Positions 3,046 to 63,801 of a stretch of 64,000 nucleotides of DNA are shown in pieces. A program made the translations under genes and the position numbers. Every line of letters begins with the position of its first letter. Positions within the stretch are counted from its first letter, which is position 1. Origin of the DNA: a virus (lineage: Duplodnaviria > Caudoviricetes). The DNA is taken from positions 1,436 to 65,435 of the IMG/VR virus record IMGVR_UViG_3300005201_000711; one strand, written 5' to 3'. Under the pieces are notes generated by a model. The model was not told the origin of the DNA. It was given only the letters and a program-made list of their open reading frames with translations, and did no database searches.

Positions 3046-4066
3046 AGAAAGCGGGGGCGCAGCCACCCACAGAACTCGCGGTGTAACTGCTGCTGTTGCC
3101 ATTGCCGCTGACACTACAGAAGTCGGAAGACGACCCGGAATGAGCCGTTGCTAAGAAGTACCAATCGCGTGATCCGTTCCACCTCTTTATCCGATACACA
3201 TAACTTTTCTGGTATATCGGATAATGTAAATTGGTGTTCCATGCAGTTAGCTCATCCCCATAGGTCTGATTCCCAAACAATTCAATTTCTGTCGGAAGCC
3301 ACACGGTGTAGTTATCCCAGGAAGAACTACCTTTATGGACATGGCCTTTTCTAATCGTATAAAGATAATCCCCGCCCAAGGCAGCTTTTAAGCCGGTTGC
3401 AAAAACGCCACTTCCATCTCCGCTCGCACCTTCAAGCCACACTCTCATTTCACTTGATTTATATCCTCCGGCATTGGTATCTGTCGGATTCATACGTCCT
3501 CTGGCTATGGAATTGCGGGTTGTGATCAAAAGGCTGTTTTTGTTTTTTTCCGTGTCTCCTACTCCTTTATAAGGATTCATACCGGAAAGAATGAGGCGAT
3601 TATTTTTATAGGCGTTGCTCCACGCCTGTGGAGCGCTCCCGCCTGTTGGTGCAGCGATAGCGCTTAGATCGAGACCATCCAGATAATCTCCAACTTGCAA
3701 CCCCTTTATATCAGGTATTCCGCTACCGTCTATTTCCCCATTGTTGTTCATCCTTATTCGGATTTTTGCCATTGATTCTGCAATAGCCTCACTTATTAAC
3801 GCTGGGGTGGTCATTTCCTCAAACCCATGACCAAGCAAGATTTTCATTAAATCGCGTCCATAGCCTTCTACCATGTCAGCACCAAGAGAAACAGAACCTG
3901 CCTCCAATTTGCCCATACCAGCACGGAGAAACACGGTTCTGTCCGCGAGTTGTTTCGCTTGTAAATTAGAGATACCTGCCGGAAGCGGCCCACCCCTAAC
4001 ATCATCGTTTTCTTCTATCTGGTAGATACCCTCCTGCCAGAGCAAGTCTTCAGGTAAATTTGCCAT
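3035..4066 (-). CDS. Tail fibre / receptor-binding protein, DGR target 1 (C-terminal CLec-type domain)
   Basis: N-terminus MANLPE..WQEGIYQIE..D.V.GG..GISN.QAKQLA.RT typical of tail fibres; C-terminal WLPTE.E.FG...FC.V..G....A....G..PAFC contains VR1. Confidence 0.9.
   Translation of the reverse strand: MANLPEDLLWQEGIYQIEENDDVRGGPLPAGISNLQAKQLADRTVFLRAGMGKLEAGSVSLGADMVEGYGRDLMKILLGHGFEEMTTPALISEAIAESMAKIRIRMNNNGEIDGSGIPDIKGLQVGDYLDGLDLSAIAAPTGGSAPQAWSNAYKNNRLILSGMNPYKGVGDTEKNKNSLLITTRNSIARGRMNPTDTNAGGYKSSEMRVWLEGASGDGSGVFATGLKAALGGDYLYTIRKGHVHKGSSSWDNYTVWLPTEIELFGNQTYGDELTAWNTNLHYPIYQKSYVYRIKRWNGSRDWYFLATAHSGSSSDFCSVSGNGNSSSYTASSVGGCAPAFCVL
3052..3141 (-). repeat. DGR variable repeat VR1
   Basis: 81/90 identical to TR; all 9 differences at TR adenines. 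Confidence 0.95.
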
Positions 4067-10624: not shown

Positions 10625-13600
10625 TTAGTGCCTCCTCATTTCTGGACTAGGGATATTTGCTCTACTGCTGTTAATAGATCCGGCAAGTCTCGCGTTAAAT
10701 TGAGCGTCTATCTGTCGAGCAATTGCCTCACTCTGCGCCTGTGGAGTTCCCGAAGGAACATTTACATTTATTGAGGTCTGCGCATTTACTGTTGAACTTC
10801 CACCTGTTGAGTTATAAGCATAATTTGATGTCGGCCCAACCGCGCCAGCCATAGCAGCGCGTGAAGATCCTGCACTGGCATAAGCAGGTTGCATCTGGCC
10901 GCCGCCTCCACTGTCCCCGCCGCCTGTAAAGAAGTTTTTAATTCCAGTTCCGATACCGCCAAAAAATCCCTTGACGGCCTCCCAGCCCTCTTTGAGTGTG
11001 TTAATGAAACCAAAAAACTTCTCTTTTATGTTTTCAAATAACCCAAAGAAAGCGTTCTTTATAAATTCAAATGTCGCGGCTGGGCCTTCTTTTAATGCTT
11101 CCCATAGCCCCGCAAAAAACTCTTTAACTTTATTTATCGCATTGAAAAAATTATCTTTCATTCTGGTCAATGCACCGCCGCTAAAATTGTCCAGGAAATT
11201 AAATGCTTTTTGACCTGCTCCTTTAATATCTTCCCAGCGGTTTCTCATAAAGCTGGCGGTAGCGGAGGCTCCTTTTTTAATTCCCTCCCATGCTGTACCA
11301 GCTCCTTTTTTGATCCCTTCCCATGCTGCACCAGCTCCTTTTTTCATGCCTTCCCATACCTTACCAGCTACGGCTTTAATACCATCGAGAGCAGCAAAAA
11401 ACTTCTCTTTTATATTATTGAGCAACCCAAAGAAAGCGTTCTTAAGAAACTCTATCGTAGCGGCTGGGCCTTCTTTGATTGCATTCCATAGCCCGGAAAA
11501 AAATTCTTTTACACCATTTACGAGGTTCAAGAAGTTATCTCTAATTCTGGATAATGCACCGCCTGTGAAATTATCTAATACATTGAACGCTTTATTACCT
11601 ACATCTTTAATGTTGTTCCAACGGTTCTTGAAGAAATCAGCGGTAGCACCCGCGCCCTTTTTCATACCGTCCCAGGCAGCGCCAGCCGCGCCTTTTATAC
11701 CGTCCCAGGCTTTACCTGCAACGTTCTTAATACCGTCCCAGGCTTTGCCTGATACCTGTTTTACTCCTTCCCATAAACCAGAGAAAAATCCGGTAACACT
11801 TTCCCATACCGCCTTAACCTTTTCAACGATAGCTTTTACGGCATCGACAATTCCACTCCATATCGCTTTTGCCGCGTCCGCTACAAAGGTGAATACTTTT
11901 GTTAAAGCAGCCTTTATCTTATCCCAATGCTTTATGATGAGACGAACAACTGCCATTACTACACCAGCAGGGAAAAATAGAATCGCTAACAATACATTTG
12001 CTATATTAAGTGCGTTTTTCTTTACAAACTCAACCACCTTTACAAAAAATGATTTTATTCCATCCCATATTTTCTTGAAAAAATTACCGATAGCTTCAAA
12101 TGCCTTTTTTAATGCTGCTACAACTGTGTCCCAGTTCTTTACCAGTAGAATAATACCGGCTATAAGAGCCGCAATACCTAAAATTATCAGCGCGATTGGA
12201 TTTGCGTTCATAATCGCATTGAATATCATTTGTATTCCTGACCATACTTTTGTAGCAAGTCCAGCTATTTTTGTGGCTGCTGCATGAGCAAAGGTTGTTA
12301 TTTTGCTTTTTAGCATTTGCGCGTCCAGCATTAGCATTGCCAGCCGGTTCCCATCTGCGGCAGCCTTCATTACAGACATGGAGCCAGTTAGTAAACCGTA
12401 AGCATCCTGTACTGCCTTTATTGTCCCTACTACTCCTTTACCAATATTCATGGCGGTTTTAACGCCTGTTATGGCTGCGGCTGCTATGAGTGCAGGACGA
12501 AGTAACCCTGAAATAGCTTCTCCGAGTTTACCAAAAAATCCAGCACTATCAGAAACTACAGGTACAAGAGGACGGATAAAATCAGCAATAGCCGTGAACA
12601 CATCTTTTGCAATTGCTCCGAGTTCTTTTATTATTGGGGAAATGAAGGCTTGAATCGGCCTGAACGCTGCGACAACCAGCCTTCCTACTTCTACTGCTAA
12701 AATCATTATCCCTGTAAGCACATCACCAGCGGCTTCTTTCAAGTCCAAAAAGAAATTTTTAACAGGATCAAGAGCGTCCCCCATATCCTCAAGCCGGTAG
12801 CCGAGGACTTCCCACATAATAATTACTTGGAAAATCCAATGTATTACTTCTTTCAGGAACTTTACAAACTTTCCAACAAATGTATCTTGCCCTGCTCTGG
12901 CGATTTCAAGAATGTATTTTAGTATTTCTTTTAATTCTTCATTTATTCCTGTTCCAACGGCCTCTGCTGTTGCCGCTTTGAAACTCTGGAACTGTTTAAT
13001 AACGCCGCCAAGAGTATTCATTTGTTTGGCAAGCATATTATTATACGGCCCACCGGCTGCGGTTACTCGCTTTAATGCTTCTTCAACTTGTGCGTAAGTA
13101 ACACCCGCTTTTTTTTGGGCTTCGGATAATCCAAGTACGCCTGAAACATCAAAGCCTTGTGCCATGAATTGTTTCAAATCCATTGCATCGGCTTTTCCTT
13201 TTGAATAAACCTGCGCCATGTTAGCAGATAATAAATTAAAGGCTTCGCTATTGCCTTGAGCAACATCACCCAATAATGTCATTTGCTCGGATGCCTTTTC
13301 AGCGTCCATACCCATTGTAACGAATGAGCGCAACCCACCAATAGCAGCAGCAGTTCCATAGAAGTCAGATACCGGAGAATAATCAAGGTCATGTATTATT
13401 TGATTTGCTTTCTCTTGATCGCCAATTAAACTACCGATAATGGTACGGTAACGCTCTGTCTCTGCTGTCGCTCCTATAACGGAATCCTTAACAAATCCAA
13501 AAGCCGCGCCGAGTGCTTTCTGCGCAACACCCATTATGATATTTGCTTTCAGGAGGCTGGCGGTTAGAGATTGCTGTTTCTGTTTTGTTTCATCAATGCC

Positions 13601-23714: not shown

Positions 23715-25976
23715 CTAAATCTGATCAATAACCTCAATATCAAAAAATACAACAGGGCCTTTCTTCTCAACCTTTGTTATACGAAAAGTTGTGCCTCGCT
23801 GGATGATAGTTTCATCTTCCATGCTAAATGTTTTTTGTCCTGTTTTTCCATCCCAGCTACTGCTTCTAGCACCATGACCATACGCACTAAATGGCTCTGC
23901 ATACATCATTTTTGTTCCCTCTGGACAGTAGATATTAAAGATATATCCACTAAACCCTGAACCCTTTGAACTTCCGCAGGAAACAAATCCTTGATCAATA
24001 ACTGGCTTTCCTACCAAACTCTGCAATTGTTCATGAGACCAGTACCACAGGTCATGCTCGCTTATTCCTAAGAACGCTGACGCTCCAGATGCCTGTTCAA
24101 TACCGCGCTGCAACCATACATCAAAATCATACTTTGAGCGGTTGATTACATTGGTCATATTCCTAATTGCATCTCCCCTGTCTTCATTATTCAGGGGAAC
24201 TTTGCCAACACCCTTGAAGTTTTTATTTTGGTCTATACCACGCAGTGGACGATTAAATCCACCAGGGCCTGCCGTGTACGCATATAACGCATCACGCTCG
24301 GCCTTTGTAGCCCCCCGCCATACCTCACCGCATACGTTCCGGAGCTTTTTGTCTGCGGCTCCTGGTGTTTTAGCCCATAGAGCCGCATTCTTTCTTTCCG
24401 GCGTGTATGCGTTACCAGTACCAGTATCAAGTATAGCTCTTTTTCCAAGGGATGTCAACCGGCTTTTATTACCATTGATTGACGCTAAAATACCGGCATA
24501 TCTTTTTCCCTCAAGCTCAAAATCCTTTAGGTCTTGTAAGTAAGTATTGAGCCTTGCCCTTTCAACTGCGGAAAGGCCGGTATCCTTGAGCCTCATCTCG
24601 TAATAGGCTCTTTTCTCTGCAATAGCTTCTGCCTTTGCCTCGTAGTCTTTGATTGTTACATCATCTTTCCATATCCCGCTGTAAGTCTTTATTTCAAAGC
24701 TGTCTAATTCCTTTTCAAGAGTTTTTAGTTCCTTTGTGAGCTTTTTCCTCTCGGCCCTGATTTTGCGCTTTTCTATTTCAGCTTCAATAGCTTCTTTTTT
24801 TGCTTTTAATTCCTGATATGCTTTTTTATCTGCTTCTCCTGTTTTCCCTTCAAGGGCTTTCATTTGCTTATTCAAATCAGATATTTCAGACTTAAGAATT
24901 TTCTGTGTAATAAACTTTTTCGATTCAGGTTCAGGAGGAACCGGAGGCGCTGGTTTTGGCATTGCCGCAATATTTTGTGCAGCTATCGCGTCCAGTTCTT
25001 CATACTGCGCTATCATAGTGTCCGCTTCATTGACAAGCTCCTGCCAATACGCTATAGCTGTACAACGGCATTGATAATCATCCCCAGGGTGTAGCAATAC
25101 TGCGCCAGACGGTCTATTTATCCATGTCTTGCCTCCGTCCTCTGAATAAACCGTGGAATCATCCCAGCGGCATAGGCCGCCATCTATCAATACGTGTGAT
25201 TCGCGGACGCGCTCATCCCCGCTGGTCTCCCATATATACATCTCAAGCCCAATGCTCTCCATGCGGGTCTGTGTGATTTGACCGTTAAGCCTCCCTATTT
25301 GATCTCTTGCGATAAAGTTTGCGCGGCCTTTGCTCATCTTATCATCTAACACCTGTATTTGTTTCGATAATTCCCTTACTGTTTTTCCTGAAGTAATAGC
25401 GCGTTCTACTAATTGATTTATATCACGGACATATTTCCGTAGATCTCCGGTAATGGTCTGATAATTAAACTGTGCCCAGTTCTCTCTTGCCTGCGGCCAC
25501 CATAATTCACCAACAGGGAACTCCACGCCGAGAACAGATTTTGCTCCTTTCTCGAATTGGCCTTCATTGAAATCAAACACATTATCTGCAATTTTTCCCA
25601 GCCCCATGTAGATAGGGGATCCACTTACGCTTTCGTTATCTTCTGGCACGTACTGACCTATCCATCCATCGAGAGAATCAATCATCACCTTAAAAGAGTG
25701 TCCAGGAACCGCGTCAAGCCGCGTAACTGAAACGTCATCGGCCCGGTACTCGGAATCGCCGTGCAGGATAGCTTCTTGATTTTCCTTTAGGTAGGTATGG
25801 ACATAATCTTTCATAGGCCGAAACCATGCGCGGATACTCGCGGCATATCGCGCCTCGGTTGCAACAGGGTAAAGCCACCGCTGCGGTTTCACGCCTCTTT
25901 TCCGCTGTGCGTTGCTCATTTTTTTTCGGTTAGATTTTATGAGATTTACCAGCGCGGCGCGGATACTATCATTCAC
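23715..25976 (-). CDS. Minor head protein MuF/SPP1 gp7 fused to a C-terminal ADP-ribosyltransferase domain
   Basis: RA.FIARDQIG.LNG, Y.W.T.GDERVR.SH, PG.DYQCRC.A (MuF); coiled linker; Y.YT..NR.LRG, QRG, FVSC.S, EDE (R-S-E ART). Confidence 0.88.
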   Translation of the reverse strand: MNDSIRAALVNLIKSNRKKMSNAQRKRGVKPQRWLYPVATEARYAASIRAWFRPMKDYVHTYLKENQEAILHGDSEYRADDVSVTRLDAVPGHSFKVMIDSLDGWIGQYVPEDNESVSGSPIYMGLGKIADNVFDFNEGQFEKGAKSVLGVEFPVGELWWPQARENWAQFNYQTITGDLRKYVRDINQLVERAITSGKTVRELSKQIQVLDDKMSKGRANFIARDQIGRLNGQITQTRMESIGLEMYIWETSGDERVRESHVLIDGGLCRWDDSTVYSEDGGKTWINRPSGAVLLHPGDDYQCRCTAIAYWQELVNEADTMIAQYEELDAIAAQNIAAMPKPAPPVPPEPESKKFITQKILKSEISDLNKQMKALEGKTGEADKKAYQELKAKKEAIEAEIEKRKIRAERKKLTKELKTLEKELDSFEIKTYSGIWKDDVTIKDYEAKAEAIAEKRAYYEMRLKDTGLSAVERARLNTYLQDLKDFELEGKRYAGILASINGNKSRLTSLGKRAILDTGTGNAYTPERKNAALWAKTPGAADKKLRNVCGEVWRGATKAERDALYAYTAGPGGFNRPLRGIDQNKNFKGVGKVPLNNEDRGDAIRNMTNVINRSKYDFDVWLQRGIEQASGASAFLGISEHDLWYWSHEQLQSLVGKPVIDQGFVSCGSSKGSGFSGYIFNIYCPEGTKMMYAEPFSAYGHGARSSSWDGKTGQKTFSMEDETIIQRGTTFRITKVEKKGPVVFFDIEVIDQI

Positions 25977-44009: not shown

Positions 44010-44116
44010 TTTTTCTTCTCCTTCCCGCAATATCCATAGCGGTAATAAATGCAGTTCTGCGTACAATGAATACATATAGGCGGCATTGGCAGTGGTGCTA
44101 AAGCTGTACCGTTCAT
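44006..44116 (-). CDS. 36-aa Cys-rich micro-protein
   Basis: Not in ORF track; ATGA/GTGA overlaps on both sides; MNGTALAPLPMPPICIHCTQNCIYYRYGYCGKEKKK. Confidence 0.45.
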   Translation of the reverse strand: MNGTALAPLPMPPICIHCTQNCIYYRYGYCGKEKKK

Positions 44117-47100
44117 GCAGCCTCCCTCCTGGACAATTCTTCCATGTCAATTTTTTGCTCAATCATTGCCTTCACTTCATTGCTATGCGTGATGATTACT
44201 GTCAGCCGCAGATTACTCTCCGCGTGTGCCGCTTCCAGCATCCGGCAGTAAGCAGTTTTGGCCGCCGAATCCAACGCGCCATCTGCTTCATCTTGAAAGC
44301 AGGTGAGGAAAGAAAAGTTTGTATTGCGCTTTCTTATAACGGCAAATGCGTCATATATAGCGCGTTTTATCCATACCGCTTCGCCACCGGATTTGTCATC
44401 GAGGAGTACTGCCTCGCCGTCCTCGCTGTCAATGACATAGATTAGGAAGTCCTCTATCTGCTTCGTTTTCTTTCCAGCCCCGCCTATGCGCGTGGTTCTG
44501 ATTTCGATACGGAAACGGTCTCCGTATGCGCTCTCAAGTATGCGGTTCGCGGTATCGGAAATGCCGGGCGCGAGCGCGTCCAGTTCCAAGGCCTGTATGC
44601 CGTCCTTGCTGAATGCCTTTGCTATGAGTTCCCAATCCTGCCCTTCAATTACTGCGGCCAGGCTGTCTTTTTTCAGCGCGGAGAACTCGTTTTCCTTTTC
44701 CGCTATCTCCGCAATAGTTTTCTGTATTGCCTCAATGCTGGCTTCGGTACGCGAGATTTCAGATTTGACAGCGGTATATTTCTCGGTGAGTTCGCTGTGC
44801 AGGGCTGTAGCAGTATCAAGGTCTGTCTTGACTTTTGCGCTAATCCCCGGATCCTGCTTAACCTTTTCGTACTCGGCTTCCTTTACCTTTAGCAGTTTGT
44901 TCTTCTCGTCCATCTGCTTCTGCAAACCTTCGATACGGACAGCGGCCTCCTGTGCCTGTACTAACGAAGCGCGTAGCACTGCTATATCCCCAACACTGGT
45001 TTGTATCGCTAAAGCGGCATTCAGTTTTGTGTCATCGAATGACGTTACCTCTGGATTGGTAGGCTCATCGAAAGCGAGTTCAGATACCTGTTGCGCGATC
45101 TCGTCCAGGCTGTTGTTCAGTTCTGTGATTTTGGAATTGAGCTTTTCAATCTCCTCTTTTTCATTACTGATTTTAGCATCACGCTGGGCAGAGGCTTTTT
45201 TTGTTGTTTCCTGGGTCTCATTTGCAATTTGCGTGAGTTCGGCGTTCAAGGTTTCAATGCTGGCTTTTTCTTCCTCAATTTTCCGTACAAACTCCTCGCG
45301 CTTTGTCTTGAGTTCCGCTATTTTATCCTCCGGCAATTTCTGTCCGCAGGTAGGGCAGTCCTCCTCTATTTCCGCAGCGTCTCTCTCATAGAGTTCAATC
45401 CGGTTCCGGGCCGTTAAAATCTTGTTATCAACCTCAACCTTTCTGGTAGAGAGAGGGTTCAACAGCTTGGTACGTTCCACCTCGGCTTCATGCTCCGCAA
45501 TTTTGATCTTGCTTTCCGCTGTGGCGATCTGGCGTTCCGTTGCATTGCGCTGGTCTTGGAAGTTATTACGCTCTATCTCCAAGACCTTGAGCTTCTCATC
45601 ATAGGACGCTTTTGCCTTTGCATATTCCTTTTGCTTTGCCAGGCTTGCCTCGGTAAACTCCTGTTTACGCTTGTTCTCTGCGTCAATGATTTTCTGCTGG
45701 GCTTCATAATCGGCGACAGCCTTCTCATAGTTGGCTTTGTTTCCGGTAGCCTCGGCCTGTGTATCAATGTCCAGAGCAAGATTGTCTATTTCGGCGTGGA
45801 TAGCGTCAACGCTTGCCTTTGCCTCTGTCTCCTGCTGCTGTCGCACCTGCTCCGCACTCCACGCGGCCTGTAAGCGTTCTTTGTCTTCCTTTGCAGTTTT
45901 ACCACGCTTTGTTATGTCCGCGAGTTCAGTGGTTTTTTTCTTACAGGTGTCCTCGGCCTCTTTTAGAGCCTGTTCTTCCTGTGGCTTCTTTGCGATAGCT
46001 TCGCGGAGCATTTGCATTTTAATATCTGCGTCATGCGTTTTCGCGGCTTCCAGTTTTGCCTTTTCATTCGCGGCATCGGAGAACACCTGCAAGTAATCAA
46101 TACCGGCAAGCGCAACGAATAAAGACTTCTTTTCCCCCGCTGTGGCATCGGTGATATCAGGCAGGTTCTTGGTGGAGCGTTGTGTAATAAAAGCGGTTCG
46201 CAGGAACAACTCTACCGGGCCGAATAACGTGCCCAGGGCTTCTTCATAGGGTTTGAGATTTCCGTCAACTCCGGGTAGAGGTTCCCAAGCGGTTTCGGCT
46301 GTTTTCCTATAAATGAAGTATTTACAGGAACCGGATTTGTTTTGGCCGTCAATTTGTATGAGGAACTTCCACATAGAGCCGTCAGTGTGATTCCGATACA
46401 CCACCTCTCTGAAACTGTCCTTGAGCAGGAAGTGATCCTGTAGTTTTCCCTTTCGCGTGAACAACTGCGGGTATGGATGGCAGTTTTCTATGAGGGTAGT
46501 TTTACCCTTGCCATTATCCCCGGAAAGTGCAATCAAGCCGTTGGAATAGTTTTCAAAGTTGACCAGTATTTCTTCTTTTTTTATGCCGTGCATGATACCG
46601 ATAGATCCCTTGAGGCGCAGGGAGGCAAGCTCCCACGTACCTTCAGGCTTTATCTCGTTCTTTGAGATTTCAGCGTTCAGGGTTTCGATTTTTTTTGCAT
46701 GGCTGGCCGTGGCTTCGACATTGGTATTCTTAGCCCAGACCTCAAACTTTTTGGCAGGTGTATTGACCTCGGTTATCTCCGCAGCGCGGACGGTTTCAAG
46801 AGGTATGTCGCAGACAGTTACCCGCGATGACTTTTCCGCTCCAACCTCAAGCAGCGAAGCCAATAAATCTTCCGCTGAAAAAAGCGCACGTTCTTCCTTT
46901 ATACAAGAGATTTCCAGCCATACCCTGCAACCGCTTTTTATCTGCTCAACCTCATCCTTAGACAAATCCATAGTTGGATAACGGCGCTCAAACTTTACAT
47001 TTCGCGGGTGAGGGAAGTCGATGGTATTAACAGCGGTTAGGCGCTGGTTCTCAACCGTGGATTCAATGTCCACTATCTTGAAGCTGGGCTGGTGCTGCTC

Positions 47101-47850
47101 TCCAAAGTTCTTAGCGTAAATACTCCCGGCATAATAGGCGTTGATATTGCCTACCTTCTGTGGCTTGTGGATGTGGCCCAGCGCGTAATAGTCAGCGCCT
47201 ATATTGGCAAGGTCATCAATGGTAATGGCGATTCCGGTTCCGCGCTCTACCGTCTGATCGTTCTGGTAGACCGTTCCAGCAACCTCGCCGTGGTACAGGA
47301 CGATACACGGAATATCCGCGTACTCCCTGCGCTTTGCTGCCAGTAGATAGCACATCTTGTGCATGGCGGCGCGGATTGCTTCTTCTGTCTCATCCTTCCC
47401 CGCGCTGGTTTCCGCTAAGAGATATTTTTTGCGCGGTTCCGGTATCCCGAATATAACAGCCTTGCCGGAAACTCCGGGGATTTCCTGAACAATTTTCCCC
47501 TTGCCGTTGACTTCGGCAAGAAAATACGGTTGTCCAGGGTCAAGAACTGTGATACCATATTTACTGGTGACTTTGCGGAACACCTCCAAACTACCGTCTG
47601 TGTCGTGGGCTGGAGTGCCGTAAATCATGGCTACCGGGGCACTGTCTGCGATTTCACGGATCGCGTCAATGTATCTGGTAAAGCCACTGGCTTCGGTGTT
47701 CAGCATCGAAGCGTCCCATGTGTCCCCGGCGATTGCTACCAGGCTAACCGGGGACTTTTTTATGTGGTCTGCAAAGAACCGCAGGGATGCAAGGGCCTCC
47801 TCCGCGTTTTCACGGCAACAGTGCAGATCGCTGATATGTGCTATTTTCAT
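44113..47850 (-). CDS. Single-chain SbcD-SbcC (Mre11-Rad50-like) nuclease-ATPase fusion
   Basis: HISDLH, AGDTWD, LGHIH phosphoesterase; GDNGKGKTT Walker A; CPTCG zinc hook; SGGE signature; FQDE Walker B. Confidence 0.88.
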   Translation of the reverse strand: MKIAHISDLHCCRENAEEALASLRFFADHIKKSPVSLVAIAGDTWDASMLNTEASGFTRYIDAIREIADSAPVAMIYGTPAHDTDGSLEVFRKVTSKYGITVLDPGQPYFLAEVNGKGKIVQEIPGVSGKAVIFGIPEPRKKYLLAETSAGKDETEEAIRAAMHKMCYLLAAKRREYADIPCIVLYHGEVAGTVYQNDQTVERGTGIAITIDDLANIGADYYALGHIHKPQKVGNINAYYAGSIYAKNFGEQHQPSFKIVDIESTVENQRLTAVNTIDFPHPRNVKFERRYPTMDLSKDEVEQIKSGCRVWLEISCIKEERALFSAEDLLASLLEVGAEKSSRVTVCDIPLETVRAAEITEVNTPAKKFEVWAKNTNVEATASHAKKIETLNAEISKNEIKPEGTWELASLRLKGSIGIMHGIKKEEILVNFENYSNGLIALSGDNGKGKTTLIENCHPYPQLFTRKGKLQDHFLLKDSFREVVYRNHTDGSMWKFLIQIDGQNKSGSCKYFIYRKTAETAWEPLPGVDGNLKPYEEALGTLFGPVELFLRTAFITQRSTKNLPDITDATAGEKKSLFVALAGIDYLQVFSDAANEKAKLEAAKTHDADIKMQMLREAIAKKPQEEQALKEAEDTCKKKTTELADITKRGKTAKEDKERLQAAWSAEQVRQQQETEAKASVDAIHAEIDNLALDIDTQAEATGNKANYEKAVADYEAQQKIIDAENKRKQEFTEASLAKQKEYAKAKASYDEKLKVLEIERNNFQDQRNATERQIATAESKIKIAEHEAEVERTKLLNPLSTRKVEVDNKILTARNRIELYERDAAEIEEDCPTCGQKLPEDKIAELKTKREEFVRKIEEEKASIETLNAELTQIANETQETTKKASAQRDAKISNEKEEIEKLNSKITELNNSLDEIAQQVSELAFDEPTNPEVTSFDDTKLNAALAIQTSVGDIAVLRASLVQAQEAAVRIEGLQKQMDEKNKLLKVKEAEYEKVKQDPGISAKVKTDLDTATALHSELTEKYTAVKSEISRTEASIEAIQKTIAEIAEKENEFSALKKDSLAAVIEGQDWELIAKAFSKDGIQALELDALAPGISDTANRILESAYGDRFRIEIRTTRIGGAGKKTKQIEDFLIYVIDSEDGEAVLLDDKSGGEAVWIKRAIYDAFAVIRKRNTNFSFLTCFQDEADGALDSAAKTAYCRMLEAAHAESNLRLTVIITHSNEVKAMIEQKIDMEELSRREAA

Positions 47851-49032: not shown

Positions 49033-49200
49033 TTATTCCGAGCTGTCTGGAGCGTCTTCGGTTCTGCCAAGTATCCAATCCAGCGTATATATAATGCCGT
49101 CTTCATAGGACATTCCCGGATACCGTGATCCGTGGCTTTGTCCTTCATTGGCCCAATCAAGGACACGGAATAACTCGTCTTTTGTCTGCTTAATTTCCAT
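49033..49200 (-). CDS. 55-aa hypothetical protein
   Basis: Not in ORF track; MEIKQTKDELFRVLDWANEGQSHGSRYPGMSYEDGIIYTLDWILG..; SD AGAGGAG. Confidence 0.55.
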   Translation of the reverse strand: MEIKQTKDELFRVLDWANEGQSHGSRYPGMSYEDGIIYTLDWILGRTEDAPDSSE

Positions 49201-52712: not shown

Positions 52713-53090
52713 CTAAAAATCCTCGCTGTCATCGGCTGTGGTTTGAGATGTGTCATGGTTAGTCTTTGACCTGGAACCGAACTCCACGCGCTCCGCAATT
52801 ATCAGCACCGCGCTTCGCTGCCTACCTTCGACCTCCCAGCGGTTTTGTTTCAGGCGGCCAGTTACACGAATCTCATCACCCTTCTTGACCTTTTCCCCGC
52901 AGAGTTTTGCGGTTTCGGCGAAGCAGTCAACGTCAAAGAAAGAGACCTCTTTTTCAAAGTTTTCTCCAGCCTTATAAAATCTATTCGTGGCGATTGACAT
53001 CTTTCCAATCACTGCGCCGGAAGCGGTAGTTTTAATTTCCGCATCCCTGACAGCGTTTCCCTCAATAATTACAAGGTTCTGCTGGTTCAT
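52713..53090 (-). CDS. ssb: Single-stranded DNA-binding protein
   Basis: N.V.I.GN..RD.E, KG..I.V.GRL....W motifs; acidic DF tail. Confidence 0.9.
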   Translation of the reverse strand: MNQQNLVIIEGNAVRDAEIKTTASGAVIGKMSIATNRFYKAGENFEKEVSFFDVDCFAETAKLCGEKVKKGDEIRVTGRLKQNRWEVEGRQRSAVLIIAERVEFGSRSKTNHDTSQTTADDSEDF

Positions 53091-53341
53091 TACACATACC
53101 TCCTATCCACGGAAAAATCCTTTTTGAAACGGCGTGGCTTATAGCCGGTTCTGTTTGCATAGGACTTTCCAAAGCAGCCCGCGTGAAACCCCTTCTTGCT
53201 ACCGCTATGGCGTCCACCACCATGCCCTCCGTAGGGATCATCTTTAGTCATTCTTTCCTGCTGTCTTCTTTCATGCCTGTTCATACACCCCTCTCTCCTA
53301 AGAATTATTTTTTCTGCGGCCAATCCCGCCGCCGTATTCAC
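53090..53341 (-). CDS. Small basic hypothetical protein
   Basis: MNRHERR.. ORF. Confidence 0.4.
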   Translation of the reverse strand: MNTAAGLAAEKIILRREGCMNRHERRQQERMTKDDPYGGHGGGRHSGSKKGFHAGCFGKSYANRTGYKPRRFKKDFSVDRRYV

Positions 53342-54860
53342 GCTTGACCCATATCCAGACCGTTTCTAATTCGGTCTGGTTCATTTCTGCCACCGGCTTC
53401 GGACAGACCAGTTTCATTCGCCGATACAACATTTTTTGATGCGCTTGTTTATTCCCATGCCCCTGCTCATTCAAAAAAGCCGTTACTATGCCGTTGATGT
53501 TTTTCCGCAGTATTTTTTCCGCATCGCTGGGGGAGCATGGGGGAAGCACTATCGCTGCTGGCGCAGGTTCATTCTCGCCTTTAGCTCTGGAACTCACCGG
53601 AATTATCCAAGGCCGCGCTTCTCCGTTGCCTTCTCCGGCATTATCTTGAGAGGGAATAAGATCCTGCTGGTTATCAGGATTTGACAGTGGTACAAGCTGC
53701 TCCTGCTCAATCATCCGGATCACTTTTTTGAACTGCCAGTCCGCTGGTGCGATAACTAAAGCGCGTTCTTTTCTTGGAGCGATACGGTTCGCTCTTGCAA
53801 AGCACTGCTCAAGCCAGGGAAGGGAACGGATATGGGAGAGACAGCAGATAGTTGTTATCTGCGGAACATTCAAGCCCTCATAGGCCATTGCTACCGTTAC
53901 GAGTATGCTATACGCGCCTCGCTTAAAGTCATGGATGTTTTTCCGCGCTTGCGGGGTGTCCTCGCTGGTGGCAATTCTCGCCTGATATCTGCGCTGCGCC
54001 AGATAGTCATAGTATGTTTTCGCTATTTCGATATTAGGCGCTACTACCAGCATTTTTGCTTCATAGTTGTTCCAGACCGTTCCGACAAATTCTTTCAAGG
54101 CTATGTTCAGAAGATGATCCGCGTACTCGGTACGGAGCGCGGTAAAGAGGGCTTTTGCTGATTCCTCTCCGGAGATTGCGGAGGTGCTTTCGTGGCCGTC
54201 CATCTCCTTCCACGTAGCTTCTCCGTCAACGAGTTGGAACTGTACCGGAAGAATTGCCCTGTCCGCTATAGCGGTTTTCCGGCCATAGCTGATAACACGC
54301 TGGGTATCCGTGTTCTTAAGTACCGGCTCACCGTGGGAATAATCCAGAAATGCAATGCGCTGACCGTCCCCGCGTGAAAGTGTCCCTGATGCCTTTATTA
54401 CCAGCACTGCTTGATCTACAAGCGGCTGTACCGCTTTATGCCACTCCGAACTCTCGGCGATGTGGTGGAACTCGTCCAGAAATAAAATGTATTTGTGTTT
54501 TTTGAATTCCCGCGCATGGCACTCCGGGTTCGTACCGACAGCCTGATAAGTAGTTACATAACCAGCAAGCCCACGCGATAAATCTCTACCATTTTCTGCG
54601 GCGCGTATGCGCTTATCCGTCTGCCAGTGTGGACTACAGAACTCATCCTCCCCTTGATACTTGAGGCTGTTGCGTGGAACCACCCAGCAGATTTTTTCCG
54701 CTATAGTCGGTATAAGGTTCTCCGCTACAATTACAGGAACAAAGGACTTACCGCCTCCGGGGGTAACGGATAGAACTATTTCTCGGATAGGATTACCGCT
54801 AAGTATTTCGCGGCATACCTCTATAATTTCTTGCTGGTGCTTCCGCAATGTGAATGACAT
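53298..54860 (-). CDS. SF2 DEAD/DEAH-box helicase
   Basis: TPGGGKS, DEFHH, SGT, Q..ARANR motifs. Confidence 0.88.
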   Translation of the reverse strand: MSFTLRKHQQEIIEVCREILSGNPIREIVLSVTPGGGKSFVPVIVAENLIPTIAEKICWVVPRNSLKYQGEDEFCSPHWQTDKRIRAAENGRDLSRGLAGYVTTYQAVGTNPECHAREFKKHKYILFLDEFHHIAESSEWHKAVQPLVDQAVLVIKASGTLSRGDGQRIAFLDYSHGEPVLKNTDTQRVISYGRKTAIADRAILPVQFQLVDGEATWKEMDGHESTSAISGEESAKALFTALRTEYADHLLNIALKEFVGTVWNNYEAKMLVVAPNIEIAKTYYDYLAQRRYQARIATSEDTPQARKNIHDFKRGAYSILVTVAMAYEGLNVPQITTICCLSHIRSLPWLEQCFARANRIAPRKERALVIAPADWQFKKVIRMIEQEQLVPLSNPDNQQDLIPSQDNAGEGNGEARPWIIPVSSRAKGENEPAPAAIVLPPCSPSDAEKILRKNINGIVTAFLNEQGHGNKQAHQKMLYRRMKLVCPKPVAEMNQTELETVWIWVKREYGGGIGRRKNNS

Positions 54861-55471
54861 TACTTTTCCCCTTTTGGAAATTGCGTAATATTACCGGCAA
54901 CGATATTAAACTCATCGTCATTGCCGTCATCGTCTTCGTCATCGAACAGGGATTGGTCAGGGCTGGTACTATGTTCATCTCCGTCTTCAAAGGGAAGCTC
55001 CCCCTGTTCCCTCGCGCCATTGGCATAAAGCTCAATCTCTTCCCGGAGATGGATTATTTTTTCTACAAGGGAGTTTTGCTGTTCAATTCTTGTTTGATAG
55101 CTTATGTCTGTAGAAGTTGCGTCATCAGCACGGAGAGGAAGCCTGTCAGTTTTCAGGATATGCTTTACATAGACATTTTCTTTTGTTCTGATTGTAAGCT
55201 CAAGCACAAAACCGTCTGGGCCGTTCTCCGGGTAGCTGAAAGTTATTTGACGAAACTGCGCTGTAATACCCTCGAACCTAAAGAATTTTAGCGCCGATAC
55301 AACAACACCAGAAACAGCGTTCAGTAAATTTCCTGTCGGCCTATCATTGGTCTGGATCCTTTGTTTTTCGGTATTGGTTTCAAAGGTAACATTATATGTG
55401 TATTCTCCACCAACCTTAAACTGTAAAATAATCATGCTAAATAACTCCCGCCTCTTTGAGTTGTTCCTCAA
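54860..55471 (-). CDS. Hypothetical protein with acidic tail
   Basis: Coupled ORF. Confidence 0.5.
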   Translation of the reverse strand: MRNNSKRRELFSMIILQFKVGGEYTYNVTFETNTEKQRIQTNDRPTGNLLNAVSGVVVSALKFFRFEGITAQFRQITFSYPENGPDGFVLELTIRTKENVYVKHILKTDRLPLRADDATSTDISYQTRIEQQNSLVEKIIHLREEIELYANGAREQGELPFEDGDEHSTSPDQSLFDDEDDDGNDDEFNIVAGNITQFPKGEK

Positions 55472-55811
55472 GGCTTTCTATAGAATTGACGACAATCCCA
55501 ATGCCACCGTTCCGGTTCACGCAGTCCAAGAACTCTTTTTGGGGCTTGGATAGCCTACCGCCTACTGGTCTCTTGCACTCAATCCAGATAGATATTCCGT
55601 TAGGCCCGATAGCACAAAAATCGGACATACCTTTTACCCCAAAGCGCACAAGGCGACCGTGGCTGTCTTTAAGACCTCCGCTGTTCATTCGCCAGTGAGG
55701 TATCTGGTGTATTGCAAGCCATTCCGAAACCATACGGTTTACAGGATTTTCCTTTACCATCCGTAATGGGTTTTTAGATTTGCGTTTTCGACCGTAGGCC
55801 ATCCCAAGCAT
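55437..55811 (-). CDS. VRR-NUC nuclease
   Basis: G.SD......IECK...G.LS..QKEFL......GG...V. Confidence 0.8.
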   Translation of the reverse strand: MLGMAYGRKRKSKNPLRMVKENPVNRMVSEWLAIHQIPHWRMNSGGLKDSHGRLVRFGVKGMSDFCAIGPNGISIWIECKRPVGGRLSKPQKEFLDCVNRNGGIGIVVNSIESLEEQLKEAGVI

Positions 55812-55823
55812 TCTCCTGTTCCT

Positions 55824-55877
55824 TCTCTCCACGCGGGAGAGAGAATTTAGATTATTCGTGTCGGTTAGCACCGACAC
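55824..55877 (-). promoter_or_regulatory. Double-hairpin target-recognition cassette downstream of VR2
   Basis: GTGTCGGT-TAGC-ACCGACAC (55858-55877) and TCTCTCC-ACGCG-GGAGAGA (55824-55842), given on + strand. Confidence 0.65.
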
Positions 55878-56436
55878 AGAAAGCGGGGGCGCAGCCACCC
55901 ACAGAACTCGCGCCGCCATCGTAGCTGTGGCCATCGAGGCTGACAATACAGAAGTCGGAAGACGACCCGGAATAGCGAGGCTTAAGCCAATACCACCAGC
56001 TCACGCCGTTGTAATTTTTCACTCCCTGATTTTCTTCGGGCAGGAAAACACGGATGCTTTCTCCGATAACAGATACCATGTCAGCATTACGTGCCGCGCT
56101 GTGAAAGGCTTCTTTAACTTCTTCACTTGCCAGATATTCAGATAACAGATCGCGGTCTGTGCCGTTGTCTGTATCCCTCGCGGAATGAATGAGAATATCC
56201 TTGCTGTAGTAATTCCCATCCCCCTTGAGTTCAAATACACCACGGGTCTTCTGCTTGTTAAAATGCAAGCCTCCGATATCCGCTTCCGGCCATTCAATAT
56301 CAAGCTCGATAACCTTTTCCCGGCCAGAACATTCTCCAGTACAAGCAGAGGTACTCTTGCCCTCCAGCTTGTCAATCCGTTTCTTGAGGTCTGATAATTC
56401 AGCCTCTACTTTTTCGCACCATTCCCTGTCTTTCAT
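55852..56436 (-). CDS. Remote DGR target 2: coiled coil plus truncated CLec-type variable domain
   Basis: C-terminus WYWL.....SGSSSDFC.VS..G.S....ASSVGGCAPAFCV; contains VR2. Confidence 0.88.
   Translation of the reverse strand: MKDREWCEKVEAELSDLKKRIDKLEGKSTSACTGECSGREKVIELDIEWPEADIGGLHFNKQKTRGVFELKGDGNYYSKDILIHSARDTDNGTDRDLLSEYLASEEVKEAFHSAARNADMVSVIGESIRVFLPEENQGVKNYNGVSWWYWLKPRYSGSSSDFCIVSLDGHSYDGGASSVGGCAPAFCVGANRHE
55884..55973 (-). repeat. DGR variable repeat VR2
   Basis: 77/90 identical to TR; all 13 differences at TR adenines. Confidence 0.93.
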
Positions 56437-57327: not shown

Positions 57328-57614
57328 TAACCCGTCTCCTTTTCTTTCATTTCAAATACATGAAAAACCAGTTCACCACGATCAAGTTGAAATGTCCCCA
57401 AGAACTTTCCCTCATTCCCCTTAAAGCTGTGGCCTGTACCGCGAATACAAAACCATTTATCTACCGGTGGATTTTCCGGCTTTACTACCGCCCAGATACA
57501 TGGCTGATTGCTTTGTGTCTGGACAGTCAGTACTTCCGCACCGGCTGGCATAGAGACTGCCACCTCATCGCCGCACGGAATTAGATATTTGAAAATACGC
57601 TTATCATCCATCAT
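57327..57614 (-). CDS. Conserved phage hypothetical protein
   Basis: P.GAEVLTVQ.Q...P.IWA.V, GTG, GT.Q...G.LV.H.FE pattern. Confidence 0.6.
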   Translation of the reverse strand: MMDDKRIFKYLIPCGDEVAVSMPAGAEVLTVQTQSNQPCIWAVVKPENPPVDKWFCIRGTGHSFKGNEGKFLGTFQLDRGELVFHVFEMKEKETG

Positions 57615-59338
57615 CCAGCCGCCTTGAACTCAAGCATTCGTACATCACTGGTTCCCAATAAAGCAACGCCGCTATTCCATAGCTTTGTAGCCTCATCCTT
57701 TGCAACGCCGTATTCCTCAACCACGTCATCGGGATCAGACATCCATCGGCGTATTTTCGCAACTTCTATGTTAAACTTCATGAGTAACCGCTTATTTATT
57801 TTCAGGTGTGCGTTGTGATTTCCGGTATAGTAGCGCATTGTAAAGGCAATCTCTCCATCGAGGGTGTAGAACTTCTGTTCTTCTTGGTGCAGGTTATAAT
57901 CAGGTATGTCATCTGGAGATATTGGGAAACCGAGGTTCTGGCAAATGACAATAAAATCATCAACAATGGTATATTTTTTAGTATATGAATACCGATCATA
58001 GTAATAGGCTCTAACAACAATTCGGTAATCAAGACCCAGCTTCCAACGCGGAGGCAGCTTCTGATACTTATAGTCCCTGTCCGTATGCCGCCAGTCGCTT
58101 TTTTTCCAGTGCCGATTTGATGTGTAATTTTCAATCCAGTCCGGGTCAGTCAAGTCATCGAATACATCGCCGATTTGTTCAAGGATACCGACATTACAGT
58201 TATTTATAATCCAGACAACTATTGAGTATATATTGTCCGCGTTAAAATCAAGAGTCTTGAACTCCTTTATATTTCTAAAAATCCTCTCCGATGTCTTTTT
58301 GGTCATGCGTTTGCTTACAGGATCCAACTTATCAAAAGTCGCTCGCCAGTACTTAGATTTCAAACCCTCAATTGCTTTACGGATTATTTCGAGCATGGAC
58401 TTTTTATCCTGCCCCATGAGCTTTATTATTTCCGGCTCTAGTTTTCCTATGGCACGGAATGCAGCGCCCAGATTTTCTTTATCACGCTCGTAATCAGAAA
58501 CAAGCTGATCTATCGGAGCTTTCTTCAATACAAGGTCTTGCTCTCGTTCTTCCTCATAATGATCATATTTTTCTCCCTCTACAAATTCAGCGATATATTC
58601 CCGCACCCAGCGTTCAAAGGCACTCTCCAAAGTTTGCTGATACGTGTAAGCATGACCATAGCTGTCTTTATCTTTTTTCCACGGAGCATTTACACGGACG
58701 AGGTTTACCTTTCCACGCGCTTTTCTGTCTGCTTCTGAAAAATCAAACTCGCCAATAATTGTCGCTTCATACCGTTTCAGTTCCCTTGTTATCTCATCTT
58801 GATCTTTCCAGCGCACCGGCATTACCAGGTATAAGATTGAGAAGTTACATTCGATAAGGATTTTATTTACCCAGCGTTCAAATTGTGAGTATGGAGGATT
58901 GCTGTATATCAGGGAATAGTATTGGTCATTGAGGACAACATCGTAATAATCGCGCCCAATGATAAAAACGCCTTTTTGGATAAGGTCATCGGCCTGCGCT
59001 CTGGCTATTTCTATGCCATACTTTTTCTCTGCCCCAAACAGATCCAGAACACGTCCGTCCCCTGCGCCAATGTCAAGAAACGATTCTATGCAAAGCCTTG
59101 CAACACCATTTTCTTTGTGGTAGGCATCCAAGTGAATGTTATCTTCATTGCGTGATCCATACTCTTTGTATTTCCCTAAATAATCACGGATGTCTTTTTT
59201 CATTGCCTCCATTATTTCAGGCGTGGTAGGATACCATTCAAAATCCTCATCAGCAGTTTTAAGCGCACGGATTTTTTTTGCCGTGCTTACAGTCTGCGTT
59301 CCCGGAACCGGAACATCGTCAACGGATAGTATTTTCAT
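57611..59338 (-). CDS. Class I SAM-dependent (adenine-type) methyltransferase with DUF4942-like C-terminus
   Basis: EWYPT, LDIGAG.G, NPPYS motifs. Confidence 0.75.
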   Translation of the reverse strand: MKILSVDDVPVPGTQTVSTAKKIRALKTADEDFEWYPTTPEIMEAMKKDIRDYLGKYKEYGSRNEDNIHLDAYHKENGVARLCIESFLDIGAGDGRVLDLFGAEKKYGIEIARAQADDLIQKGVFIIGRDYYDVVLNDQYYSLIYSNPPYSQFERWVNKILIECNFSILYLVMPVRWKDQDEITRELKRYEATIIGEFDFSEADRKARGKVNLVRVNAPWKKDKDSYGHAYTYQQTLESAFERWVREYIAEFVEGEKYDHYEEEREQDLVLKKAPIDQLVSDYERDKENLGAAFRAIGKLEPEIIKLMGQDKKSMLEIIRKAIEGLKSKYWRATFDKLDPVSKRMTKKTSERIFRNIKEFKTLDFNADNIYSIVVWIINNCNVGILEQIGDVFDDLTDPDWIENYTSNRHWKKSDWRHTDRDYKYQKLPPRWKLGLDYRIVVRAYYYDRYSYTKKYTIVDDFIVICQNLGFPISPDDIPDYNLHQEEQKFYTLDGEIAFTMRYYTGNHNAHLKINKRLLMKFNIEVAKIRRWMSDPDDVVEEYGVAKDEATKLWNSGVALLGTSDVRMLEFKAAG

Positions 59339-59610
59339 TTTGCTACTCCTTTGGCTTCGCCGTTCAAAATAGCGTCAGCCTGTTGCGACACCTCGTAATC
59401 TGCCGCTTGCCGGTTCCGTGTGAGAAAGTCGTATATCTCGCTTTCAAGAAAGAAAACTTTACCGCCAGTTCCATTGGGTTTGTGGCACGGTATTTTTTTG
59501 AAGTGAATAAGTTTGTAAATATACGAGCGAGAATAGCTAGTCATCTCCATGACTTTTTCAATACGGATAGGCATTTCCTTTATCCGCTTTTTTTCAGTTT
59601 CCATTTCCAT
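59335..59610 (-). CDS. Excisionase / AlpA-type HTH protein
   Basis: EMTSYSRSYIYKL..KIPC.KP..GKV.F..EI. Confidence 0.75.
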   Translation of the reverse strand: MEMETEKKRIKEMPIRIEKVMEMTSYSRSYIYKLIHFKKIPCHKPNGTGGKVFFLESEIYDFLTRNRQAADYEVSQQADAILNGEAKGVAK

Positions 59611-59708
59611 ACCCCTTGTCTAAAAAGTTGCTCGTCTATTCCGAGCCGCCAGCAACCGGCTTTTTTAAGGTTTCCCAGGAACACCAAGGCTGCCGTTCCG
59701 TCCCTTCC

Positions 59709-59781
59709 TAGCAGGGGGAGGACTCGAACCTCCGACAACATGGTTATGAGCCACGTGAGCTAGCCGCTGCTCAACCCTGCC
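59709..59781 (-). tRNA. tRNA with CAT anticodon (Met / initiator-like), no encoded CCA
   Basis: GGCAGGG/CCCTGCT acceptor, GAGC/GCTC D-stem, CTCATAA loop, GGAGG-TTCGAGT-CCTCC T-arm. Confidence 0.85.
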
Positions 59782-59936
59782 AATTCGCCGCTGGCCAGCT
59801 TCGCCAGCGGGTAGTCTTTTTTTTACGTCCAGCAAGCAGACTACGCACTCGCCTTCGCGCCCTGTCTTTCCAAGGTGTCAGAACCGTTGCTGTGGACGGT
59901 TTCTACAGCTTCTTTCACGCCTGCAAAAAGTTTTCA

Positions 59937-62754: not shown

Positions 62755-63801
62755 TTAGATCGCGATTTCTGGGAGCGCGTTAATTACGTTCATTCGTAGC
62801 TTGTCTGTAACCTTCGCGTACTTAGCGACATGGCTCATATTAACGTGCCCCAGAAGTTTTGCCAGAGTAACAATATCTGCTCCGCTCTCAAGCGCCATAG
62901 TAGCAAATGTTCGCCGGGCCGTATGCCATCCGATATTTTTCGGAACACCTGCTTTTTCGGCCCAATTCTTGAGGTGGGCATAGCTGGCACGTCTATTACG
63001 TGTGGCAAGATTAAAAACAGAATCGGTCTGCGTGTGGATTTTTCCATCGTTAAGAATATCCTGCGCGGTTTTACTTAATGGAACCACAACATTGCTCTGG
63101 GTTTTTTCCTGACTTTTTATTATCTGCATGGGATTTGTTTGTATCTTTGACCATGTAAGAGTTTCAATATCTGATATTCGTAAGCCGGTATGACAAGCAA
63201 ATAGAAAAGCTCGGCGTATCTCTGCGCCATAGACGGTATCAAGTTTTATAGTCGCTAATTTCTGAACCTCCTCCGAACTAAGGAATAATAGTTCTGCTTC
63301 CGGTGCGGTTATTTTTTGCACGATATTTGCAGGATTTTTTGTTATTAAACCCTTCGCTACTGCTTTATTCAACGCGCAGCGCAATACTCTGGAATAGAAA
63401 CCTGCTGTATACCGAGACAATGTTTCTTGCTTTAGCAGATGCGCTTGAAACTCCTCTACCCATTTCGATGTTAAATGAACCAGCAGTATATTTCCTTTAT
63501 CAAAATCTTTGATGTGCTTTAGACAGGCATTTACTGTAGCGGGGTTCTTATAATTCTTTGCGTGATCCTCTAAGTATTTTACCAGCGAAACCCTGCCGGC
63601 AATGGGATCGTTAATATCCCATGCTCCGGTAAGGAACTGCGTCTCGCGCTTGGAACGACATATCTCCGCGAGCCTCCATATTTCTTTGTTCTGGACTTTG
63701 TCTTTTGTTAATTCAAGATGTAATGATTCCCATGTACGCTTTCCCCCCTGGTAAATATCAAGGTATAGCTTTCCACGCTTCTCGCGTATCTTTACGCTCA
63801 T
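62755..63801 (-). CDS. int: Tyrosine recombinase / phage integrase
   Basis: TGLRISDI, K, HTARRTFAT, LLGH...Y catalytic residues. Confidence 0.93.
   Translation of the reverse strand: MSVKIREKRGKLYLDIYQGGKRTWESLHLELTKDKVQNKEIWRLAEICRSKRETQFLTGAWDINDPIAGRVSLVKYLEDHAKNYKNPATVNACLKHIKDFDKGNILLVHLTSKWVEEFQAHLLKQETLSRYTAGFYSRVLRCALNKAVAKGLITKNPANIVQKITAPEAELLFLSSEEVQKLATIKLDTVYGAEIRRAFLFACHTGLRISDIETLTWSKIQTNPMQIIKSQEKTQSNVVVPLSKTAQDILNDGKIHTQTDSVFNLATRNRRASYAHLKNWAEKAGVPKNIGWHTARRTFATMALESGADIVTLAKLLGHVNMSHVAKYAKVTDKLRMNVINALPEIAI

Follow-up and report, generated by a model that had tools for sequence, protein, structure and literature searches.

A probable second target of a diversity-generating retroelement among the early-region genes of a spirochete prophage

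The DNA analyzed here (the window, 64,000 nucleotides) comprises bases 1436-65435 of a 65,435-bp provirus in IMG/VR, record IMGVR_UViG_3300005201_000711, which is 100% complete according to CheckV. Near one end it carries, on the minus strand, a diversity-generating retroelement (DGR) cassette that looks complete, with a tail-fiber gene, an Avd-like accessory gene, a template repeat (TR) and a reverse transcriptase (RT). The RT gene (892-2025) is identified by a match to RVT_1 (E 2e-18) and by the YMDD and GSQVSQ motifs in its translation; the listed open reading frame (ORF) runs to 2253, and the methionine at 2025 is the probable start. The TR (2284-2373) is located between this gene and the Avd-like one (2374-2892, start approximate), which matches phrog_3206, 'Avd protein of DGR' (E 5e-5). 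The cassette target is a tail fiber of 343 aa (3035-4066), whose N-terminus matches the tail-fiber PHROGs 3100 and 4209, which has a DUF6273 match of 25.1 bits, and which contains the first variable repeat (VR1, 3052-3141). The gene that is the subject of this study (55852-56436) lies at the opposite end of the prophage, also on the minus strand. It encodes a protein of 194 aa, P0001, and contains a second variable repeat, VR2 (55884-55973, codons 156-185).

The TR and VR2, both read on the minus strand, align without gaps over 90 nt with 13 mismatches, and 13/13 of these fall at TR adenines (P ~7e-10 under random placement, there being 23 adenines in the 90-nt TR). VR1 differs from the TR at nine sites, again all (9/9) at TR adenines; a comparison of VR1 with VR2 gives 13 differences, every one of them at a TR adenine, and the codon register of the two is identical. 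The coordinates, the mismatch count and the register shared with the tail fiber had all been put forward in an earlier reading of the window from its letters alone (the sequence-only reading), and recomputation reproduced them. In the target frame the TR contains ten AAY codons, which correspond to residues 161, 164, 166-168, 170 and 172-175 of P0001. Flanking blocks of 29 nt and 17 nt occur in three exact copies in the window (0 expected), and also in three in the whole 65.4-kb record. The confinement of all differences to adenines argues against the view that VR2 is a relic, that is, a past copy of the repeat which arose by recombination with the fiber or the TR and is no longer mutagenized, leaving P0001 a fixed lectin-like protein. 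The RT, Avd-like gene and TR of the cassette, which look intact, argue in the same direction.

The two variable repeats also share what follows them. The GC-rich 3' end of the repeat, a 13-mer resembling an initiation of mutagenic homing (IMH) site (55884-55896 in VR2), is identical in the TR, VR1 and VR2. After it the TR diverges, with ATTCCG in the place where both VRs have the motif CTTTCT (55878-55883). This motif is followed by hairpin 1 (55858-55877), with an 8-bp stem, a 4-nt loop and a DNA fold of -10.3 kcal/mol (z -6.4), which is contained in the final codons of the gene, then by an AT-rich spacer, and finally by hairpin 2 (55824-55842), with a 7-bp stem, pyrimidine-rich on one side and purine-rich on the other, and a 5-nt loop, in the spacer ahead of the VRR-NUC gene. 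The order is the same behind VR1, where the stem sequences differ from those behind VR2 and the pairing is kept; neither hairpin is present behind the TR.

Relatives of the RT show the same organization. The RT has 213 relatives in IMG/VR, and every close one that was examined adjoins an A-specific TR/VR pair. In the four closest (58-62% RT identity; L034-L037) each pair has 9-14 mismatches, all at A, and behind the cassette VRs (e.g., L034:1842-1933) come CTTTCT and hairpin 1, then a spacer and hairpin 2, the stems of both hairpins covarying. Most homologs of the 194-aa gene likewise have this two-hairpin signal behind them, and their stems covary too. Because one signal follows VR1, the VRs of the RT relatives and most of these homologs, VR2 appears to have the full target-recognition apparatus of this DGR lineage, and the candidate bipartite recognition element is specific to the lineage, going beyond the single hairpin of phage BPP-1. 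Its intact state behind VR2 and the compensatory stem changes across relatives are further points against a relic. Judging from the A-only mismatches and the shared homing signal, the gene 55852-56436 is almost certainly a genuine second target of the prophage's own DGR, as the sequence-only reading had proposed.

A word-indexed search found at least 157 homologs of P0001 (as 90% clusters), similar in length and 47-66% identical, the named sources of which are metagenome-assembled genomes (MAGs) of Treponema and Spirochaetaceae. An exhaustive profile search gave 447 matches, with 57 cluster representatives (50% identity) at E <1e-30. Among GTDB genomes, the family is found in termite-gut-style Treponema/Spirochaetaceae MAGs and in two Oscillospiraceae. 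No match was obtained among INPHARED phages by megablast or tblastn, nor in IMG/VR when it was scanned with the single protein; the alignment-based scan of IMG/VR yielded three records only.

In an alignment of 119 homologs, the ten AAY-templated columns have a mean entropy of 3.25 bits, compared with 1.27 in the scaffold. Lys, Glu, Gln, Met and Trp fill 3 of the 1173 cells in these ten columns, whereas the other variable columns have them in 804 of 3442 (Fisher P ~1e-108). Since NNY codons cannot encode those five residues, their scarcity is the footprint of adenine mutagenesis on AAY codons, and diversification limited to A-templated sites is thereby seen at the level of the whole family. 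Moreover, nine protein pairs with 91-98% identical scaffolds have only 0-3 of the ten VR positions in common, which argues for recent, repeated rewriting; that scaffolds so nearly alike have unrelated VRs, limited to residues which NNY codons can encode, again disfavors a relic. A VR module of the same type, about 50 residues long, recurs up to nine times in proteins of 2,000-4,000 aa (P0176, P0215, P0218 and others), and this sequence pattern suggests multi-VR surface proteins using the same DUF6273-type module.

Some relatives keep the target where a DGR was not detected. In G001 (IMGVR_UViG_3300028327_000005), complete according to CheckV, the target gene (L004:10001-10561) retains the GC-rich repeat end and both hairpins, while protein and Pfam searches of this genome found no RT, and neither a second copy of the repeat nor a fiber homolog was present. 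The TR of L036, which comes from the same sample, does not match the G001 VR. Similarly, no cognate TR was found in G007 or G008, nor near the RTs of two homolog-carrying MAGs. These orphan VRs could reflect a recent loss of the DGR, the action in trans of a DGR in a co-resident element, or incomplete contigs; for G001 itself, loss or action in trans is considered. The retention of the gene without RT or TR in G001 is what a relic would lead one to expect, and a parallel exists in phage Lelie, a relative of FP_Toutatis, in which no read variation was observed at the VRs (PMC11792537). Set against the adenine-restricted differences, the intact homing signal and the rewriting of VRs on near-identical scaffolds, this explanation of VR2 is nevertheless very improbable. 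In relatives that keep the target without a DGR, the protein must be of use even in its fixed form.

The fold of P0001 was addressed by structure prediction. A first AlphaFold2 model, based on 28 sequences, had a predicted local distance difference test score (pLDDT) of 66.6, with the VR part below 50, and Foldseek, VIA-align and profile-vs-PDB searches with it gave nothing usable. It was superseded by a model based on 150 homologs (pLDDT 90.4, predicted template modeling score 0.78), in which a helix (residues 2-26) is joined by a disordered linker to a compact alpha/beta domain (38-190) that is C-type-lectin/DUF6273-like. When this model was compared by VIA-align with 48,161 chains, the matches were almost solely C-type lectin domains, with TvpA among the top ones, whereas Foldseek gave weak matches (E at least 0.03) to collectins, IgA peptidase and Lcl. 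In the predicted model the topology is that of a C-type lectin domain of the DGR class (CLec), and the VR forms the exposed C-terminal surface. The short coiled coil and CLec-like variable C-terminus described by the sequence-only reading thus find their counterparts in the predicted coiled-coil-like helix and variable domain, and its suggested comparison with CLec targets came out in favor of that fold. Against Pfam DUF6273 (PF19789) P0001 scores 19.9 bits (E 7e-4) in its C-terminal half only, the gathering threshold being 23.5 bits. A DUF6273 match is precomputed for some members of the family, and the ESM Atlas neighbors of P0001 are DUF6273 clusters (TM-score 0.60-0.68).

A complex model with three copies of P0001 scored 0.55, compared with 0.02 for the best control. 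Of 30 solved homo-pairs 20 reached this mark, as did 1 of 23 single chains, counts that are only a rough guide here because the calibration was done with two copies. The runs share at least 50% of the contacts, with a partner pLDDT of 77 or more. The predicted interface coincides with the most conserved scaffold residues (56-64, 83-90 and 142-147). According to these models, P0001 probably self-associates via its most conserved residues and leaves the variable patch exposed as a ligand-binding surface.

Such an architecture, resembling that of Mtd and the collectins, raises the possibility that P0001 is a virion-associated or extracellular accessory adhesin, i.e., a small trimeric lectin-like protein which binds a receptor or an environmental ligand, decorates the particle, and is encoded outside the late operon by happenstance. 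The CLec fold, with a DGR surface protein (TvpA) among the top matches, is in agreement with this, as is the fact that one TR also serves the tail fiber, the VR modules of the two proteins being 62% identical over 50 residues. The likeness between P0001 and the fiber is confined to this module. The N-terminus of P0001 is charged and helical; it contains no hydrophobic leader and no tail- or fiber-attachment region of the kind expected of an Mtd-like virion protein, and the gene stands outside the structural operon. Therefore the claim of the sequence-only reading that the protein lacks both a fiber N-terminus and a signal peptide stands. The lack of a structural PHROG match likewise speaks against an adhesin.

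The position of the gene was analyzed next to that of its neighbors. On the minus strand, from right to left, the map begins with the integrase (62755-63801), a CI-like repressor on the opposite strand, Xis/AlpA (59335-59610), a DUF4942 methyltransferase-like gene (57611-59338), DUF7352, two small ORFs and the target. The long leader that separates the early promoter region from Xis contains a tRNA-Met (CAT) gene (59708-59782, minus). Directly downstream of the target are the VRR-NUC nuclease gene (55437-55802, minus; 121 aa; PF08774, E 2.5e-5, 24.8 bits against a cut-off of 23.8), a 203-aa ORF, a ResIII/Helicase_C helicase (53298-54860, minus) and SSB (52713-53090, minus), so that the early-operon placement upstream of VRR-NUC and helicase genes given by the sequence-only reading is correct. 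The 203-aa ORF (54860-55471) was also considered as the VRR-NUC gene and was rejected in favor of the 121-aa ORF. Further on lie an Mre11/Rad50-like fusion and methylases. The fusion is a 1245-aa ORF (44113-47850, minus) with a calcineurin-like phosphoesterase (Mre11/SbcD-like) and weak, sub-threshold Rad50 zinc-hook and AAA_23 similarity; it also matches phrog_77 (SbcC-like). The late part comprises terminase, portal, MuF-ART and protease genes, then sheath, tape measure and baseplate genes, and finally the fiber with VR1, avd, TR and RT. At its C-terminus, the MuF-like minor head protein (23715-25976, minus) carries an ADP-ribosyltransferase region (phrog_16625 Bxa-like, E 5e-25).

The target ORF is open throughout and is preceded by a Shine-Dalgarno-like site of its own, its start lying 16 nt beyond the early gene upstream; no promoter-like excess was seen in the target region. 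The close spacing to an early gene is a further argument against an adhesin. The description of the target as remote, 53 kb from the retroelement, holds on the prophage map, where the distance is 53.5 kb, but not on the excised circle, where it is at most ~11.7 kb because the DGR and the target are at opposite prophage ends and flank the attachment junction. This value is an upper bound, as no att repeat could be found (no direct repeat >10 nt between the record ends).

Similar neighborhoods surround the gene in relatives. Two contigs of ~62 kb match the order of the window, with integrase, HTH_17, DUF4942, small ORFs, target, small ORFs, ResIII helicase and SSB. In Treponema sp. R6D11 a family member of 182 aa (L030:5969-6517) is located between SSB and YqaJ/RecT and is preceded in tandem by a distant paralog of 304 aa (L030:5005-5919; hhalign probability 97%, weak DUF6273 match), both genes ending in the same homing signal. 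Genes for an N6/N4 methylase, for a Band_7 protein and for an RNA ligase lie near another relative. One gene, P0063, stands between MuF-like and capsid genes, yet the small genes around it form an island in which YopX, T4_Y16D and a free-standing Lar gene (L031:11619-11807) also occur, the latter three genes downstream of the target. Among the relatives whose context was examined, none has tail genes beside the target. The P0063 location is consistent with an adhesin, while the early, replication or anti-restriction neighborhoods of the window and four other backbones are not what one would expect of it.

Domain fusions give additional leads. In P0147 (L028:503-1270) a full Tad2-like domain (PF11195, E 1.8e-20) is N-terminal to the scaffold, and the gene is directly followed by a 178-aa ORF (L028:1280-1816), at the end of which the same GC-rich repeat end is found together with both hairpins. 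In P0084 (L029:15-770) Lar_restr_allev (PF14354, E 3e-9) is C-terminal to the scaffold. A cluster of 52 viral proteins in the ESM Atlas combines DUF4406 with DUF6273; the N-terminal extension of P0162 had no usable match there. The partners of these fusions are cytoplasmic-type domains and not Ig-like or fiber domains, which again distinguishes the family from adhesins. Since the Tad2-like and Lar fusions are known from single contigs and have lost the hairpins, they are leads and not proof. Both the gene context and the fusions favor early action inside the cell over a place in the virion. On balance, the adhesin explanation is unlikely, although it is the role that the authors describing FP_Toutatis and the tentaclin-partner proteins favor for the corresponding proteins there (receptor binding).

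The interpretation that we prefer, with a probability of about 0.5, is that P0001 is an intracellular, early-acting variable binder involved in anti-defense or host takeover. It is based on the lack of a leader or virion-attachment module together with early, replication or anti-restriction placement in at least five prophage backbones, and on the operon coupling to early genes and the fusions to cytoplasmic-type domains. The conserved non-structural context and the single Tad2-like and Lar fusions provide circumstantial support for the anti-defense or host-takeover role.

In the scheme proposed here we infer present-day retrohoming activity as well as the expression timing, cellular location and ligand of P0001. 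By analogy with BPP-1, the TR would be transcribed, the RT and Avd would make a cDNA with random misincorporation opposite adenines, and this cDNA would replace either VR1 in the tail fiber or VR2 in the 194-aa gene. The ten AAY codons would thereby be randomized among 15 amino acids. The oligomer predicted by modeling, with its helical neck and lectin domains, would present the variable patch to a ligand, and P0001 would act early inside the infected cell, where it would bind, in its many variants, a host component that itself varies. Under selection, each incoming or induced genome would express its own variant in the cell whose defenses it faces.

Several observations weigh against this interpretation. 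To our knowledge, the only experimentally characterized phage DGR target is Mtd of BPP-1, a virion receptor-binding protein, and the oligomer of neck and lectin domains resembles adhesins such as the collectins and Mtd itself. Gene position does not prove the time of expression, and P0063 is located between head genes. P0001 has no match in PHROG (structural families included), PADLOC or NCBIfam. The Tad2-like and Lar fusions come from one metagenomic contig each and lack the post-VR hairpins. The orphan targets of G001, G007, G008 and the two MAGs described above belong here as well. Finally, receptor binding is proposed for the second target of Toutatisvirus phages, a core gene that persists without the DGR (bioRxiv 10.1101/2024.10.15.618418).

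The persistence of the gene without a DGR could also indicate that P0001 serves the lysogen, as a variable sensor or decoy against incoming phages or other invaders, and would thus be a prophage-encoded, DGR-diversified immune receptor. There is a precedent in cytoplasmic CLec-type targets of cellular DGRs, which are proposed as antigen sensors in another study (bioRxiv 10.1101/2023.09.22.558884), and the missing leader peptide of P0001 agrees with it. On the other hand, the gene belongs to a lytic early operon downstream of Xis, on the strand opposite to the CI-like repressor, and has no convincing promoter of its own; nor was an effector domain found in P0001, or a PADLOC match in P0001 or its small neighbors, which also lack NCBIfam matches. 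These features make a lysogen-serving receptor improbable.

Returning to early intracellular action, a broader proposal may be made tentatively, and in its full extent it is doubtful. The P0001 family, and by analogy gp24 of FP_Toutatis, may represent widespread early cytoplasmic DGR-diversified binders that work as programmable inhibitors or decoys against variable host defenses; the fusions to Tad2-like, Lar and DUF4406 domains would then descend from such binders in fixed form. Phage DGRs are usually explained as host-range devices acting on receptor-binding proteins. If the intracellular role is true, targeted hypermutation also serves the phage side of the race between defense and counter-defense, and the family is a natural scaffold for evolvable intracellular binders; if it is false, the family is a new class of accessory adhesins. 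The P0001 family is one large clean set from which the mutagenesis signature can be read together with the homing signal and the gene context. The family-wide signature, the two-hairpin signal and the contextual leads make the role of the second target directly testable.

One system for comparison is the DGR of BPP-1 (Mtd, Avd, TR and Brt), with adenine-specific transfer from TR to VR and AAY codons; its VR is C-terminal in a CLec fold, ends in a GC-rich IMH and is closely followed by a hairpin with a 4-nt loop. The window shares the A-specific differences, the AAY codons, the C-terminal CLec VR, the GC-rich VR end and the hairpin with a 4-nt loop. It differs in that one TR serves two genes, instead of a single target encoding a tail-fiber tip protein, in that the second target is outside the structural module, and in that the signal has a second hairpin. 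TvpA, a surface lipoprotein, is the target of a cellular DGR in Treponema denticola and has an FGE-type CLec fold (PDB 2Y3C, 278 residues in the solved chain). P0001, in contrast, is phage-borne and leaderless, with a compact DUF6273-type domain and a helical neck. As for the Tad2 (DUF2829) and Lar anti-defense proteins, they are fused to the scaffold in single relatives of P0001 and occur in the same type of neighborhood, among early accessory genes. Unlike in those fusions, a Pfam scan found neither the Tad2-like (PF11195) nor the Lar (PF14354) domain in P0001 itself, and its fold implies no sponge or anti-restriction activity. In the limited literature searched, no paper was found that connects DGR targets with Tad2 or early non-structural genes.

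With regard to two-target systems, the novelty implied by the sequence-only reading was too strong. Many phage DGRs have one cassette target and one non-adjacent target within ~50 kb, i.e., in the same prophage (Wu et al., PMC5758913). Phage DGRs with two different DUF6273/C-lec targets are described by Baykov et al. 2023 (PMC10743442); in these tentaclin systems, as in the window, one TR serves two different DUF6273/CLec proteins, the second being a single globular CLec with short flanking helices. There, however, the abstract has the targets belong to the DGR and reads them as receptor-binding, whereas here the second target is at the other end of the prophage. Toutatisvirus phages have a second DUF6273 target, left without an assigned function and 17,480 nt away from the TR, according to Egorov et al. 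(bioRxiv 10.1101/2024.10.15.618418). The related phages Lelie and CP11 are covered in another paper, where the role of such target pairs 'is not entirely clear' (PMC11792537).

We compared the window with FP_Toutatis (NC_047915) directly. Its gp24 (215 aa, annotated DUF6273) has a VR (11932-12035) that differs from the TR (49076-49179) by 14 mismatches, 13 of them at A. As gp24 is flanked by DNA methylases/prohibitin and the replication initiator, it belongs to the early region, and the layout is the same as that of the window. The gp80 entry of FP_Toutatis (49048-49200, 'DUF6273 domain-containing protein') overlies the TR between avd and RT and is probably an annotation artifact. FP_Toutatis and the prophage of the window are both temperate myovirus-type genomes with Avd-TR-RT at the tail-fiber end and a second small (~200 aa) DUF6273/CLec protein with a C-terminal VR, whose early-region gene has DNA methylases on one side and replication genes on the other; in both lineages this target persists where the DGR is absent (here in G001). 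They differ in host phylum, Spirochaetota here and Bacillota there, and in the first target, which is a Hoc-like decoration protein in FP_Toutatis and a tail fiber in the window. Homology between gp24 and P0001 is limited to the VR module of ~50 aa (hhalign probability 9%, no tblastn match), and the post-VR double hairpin is not evident after the Toutatis VR. The available part of Egorov et al. contains no comment on early-region placement or anti-defense fusions. Several gut phages are known to have a second small DUF6273 target, and the arrangement now extends to spirochete prophages. The arrangement itself is not new, and the window is a large spirochete-prophage member of the class of two-target phage DGRs with a small DUF6273 second target.

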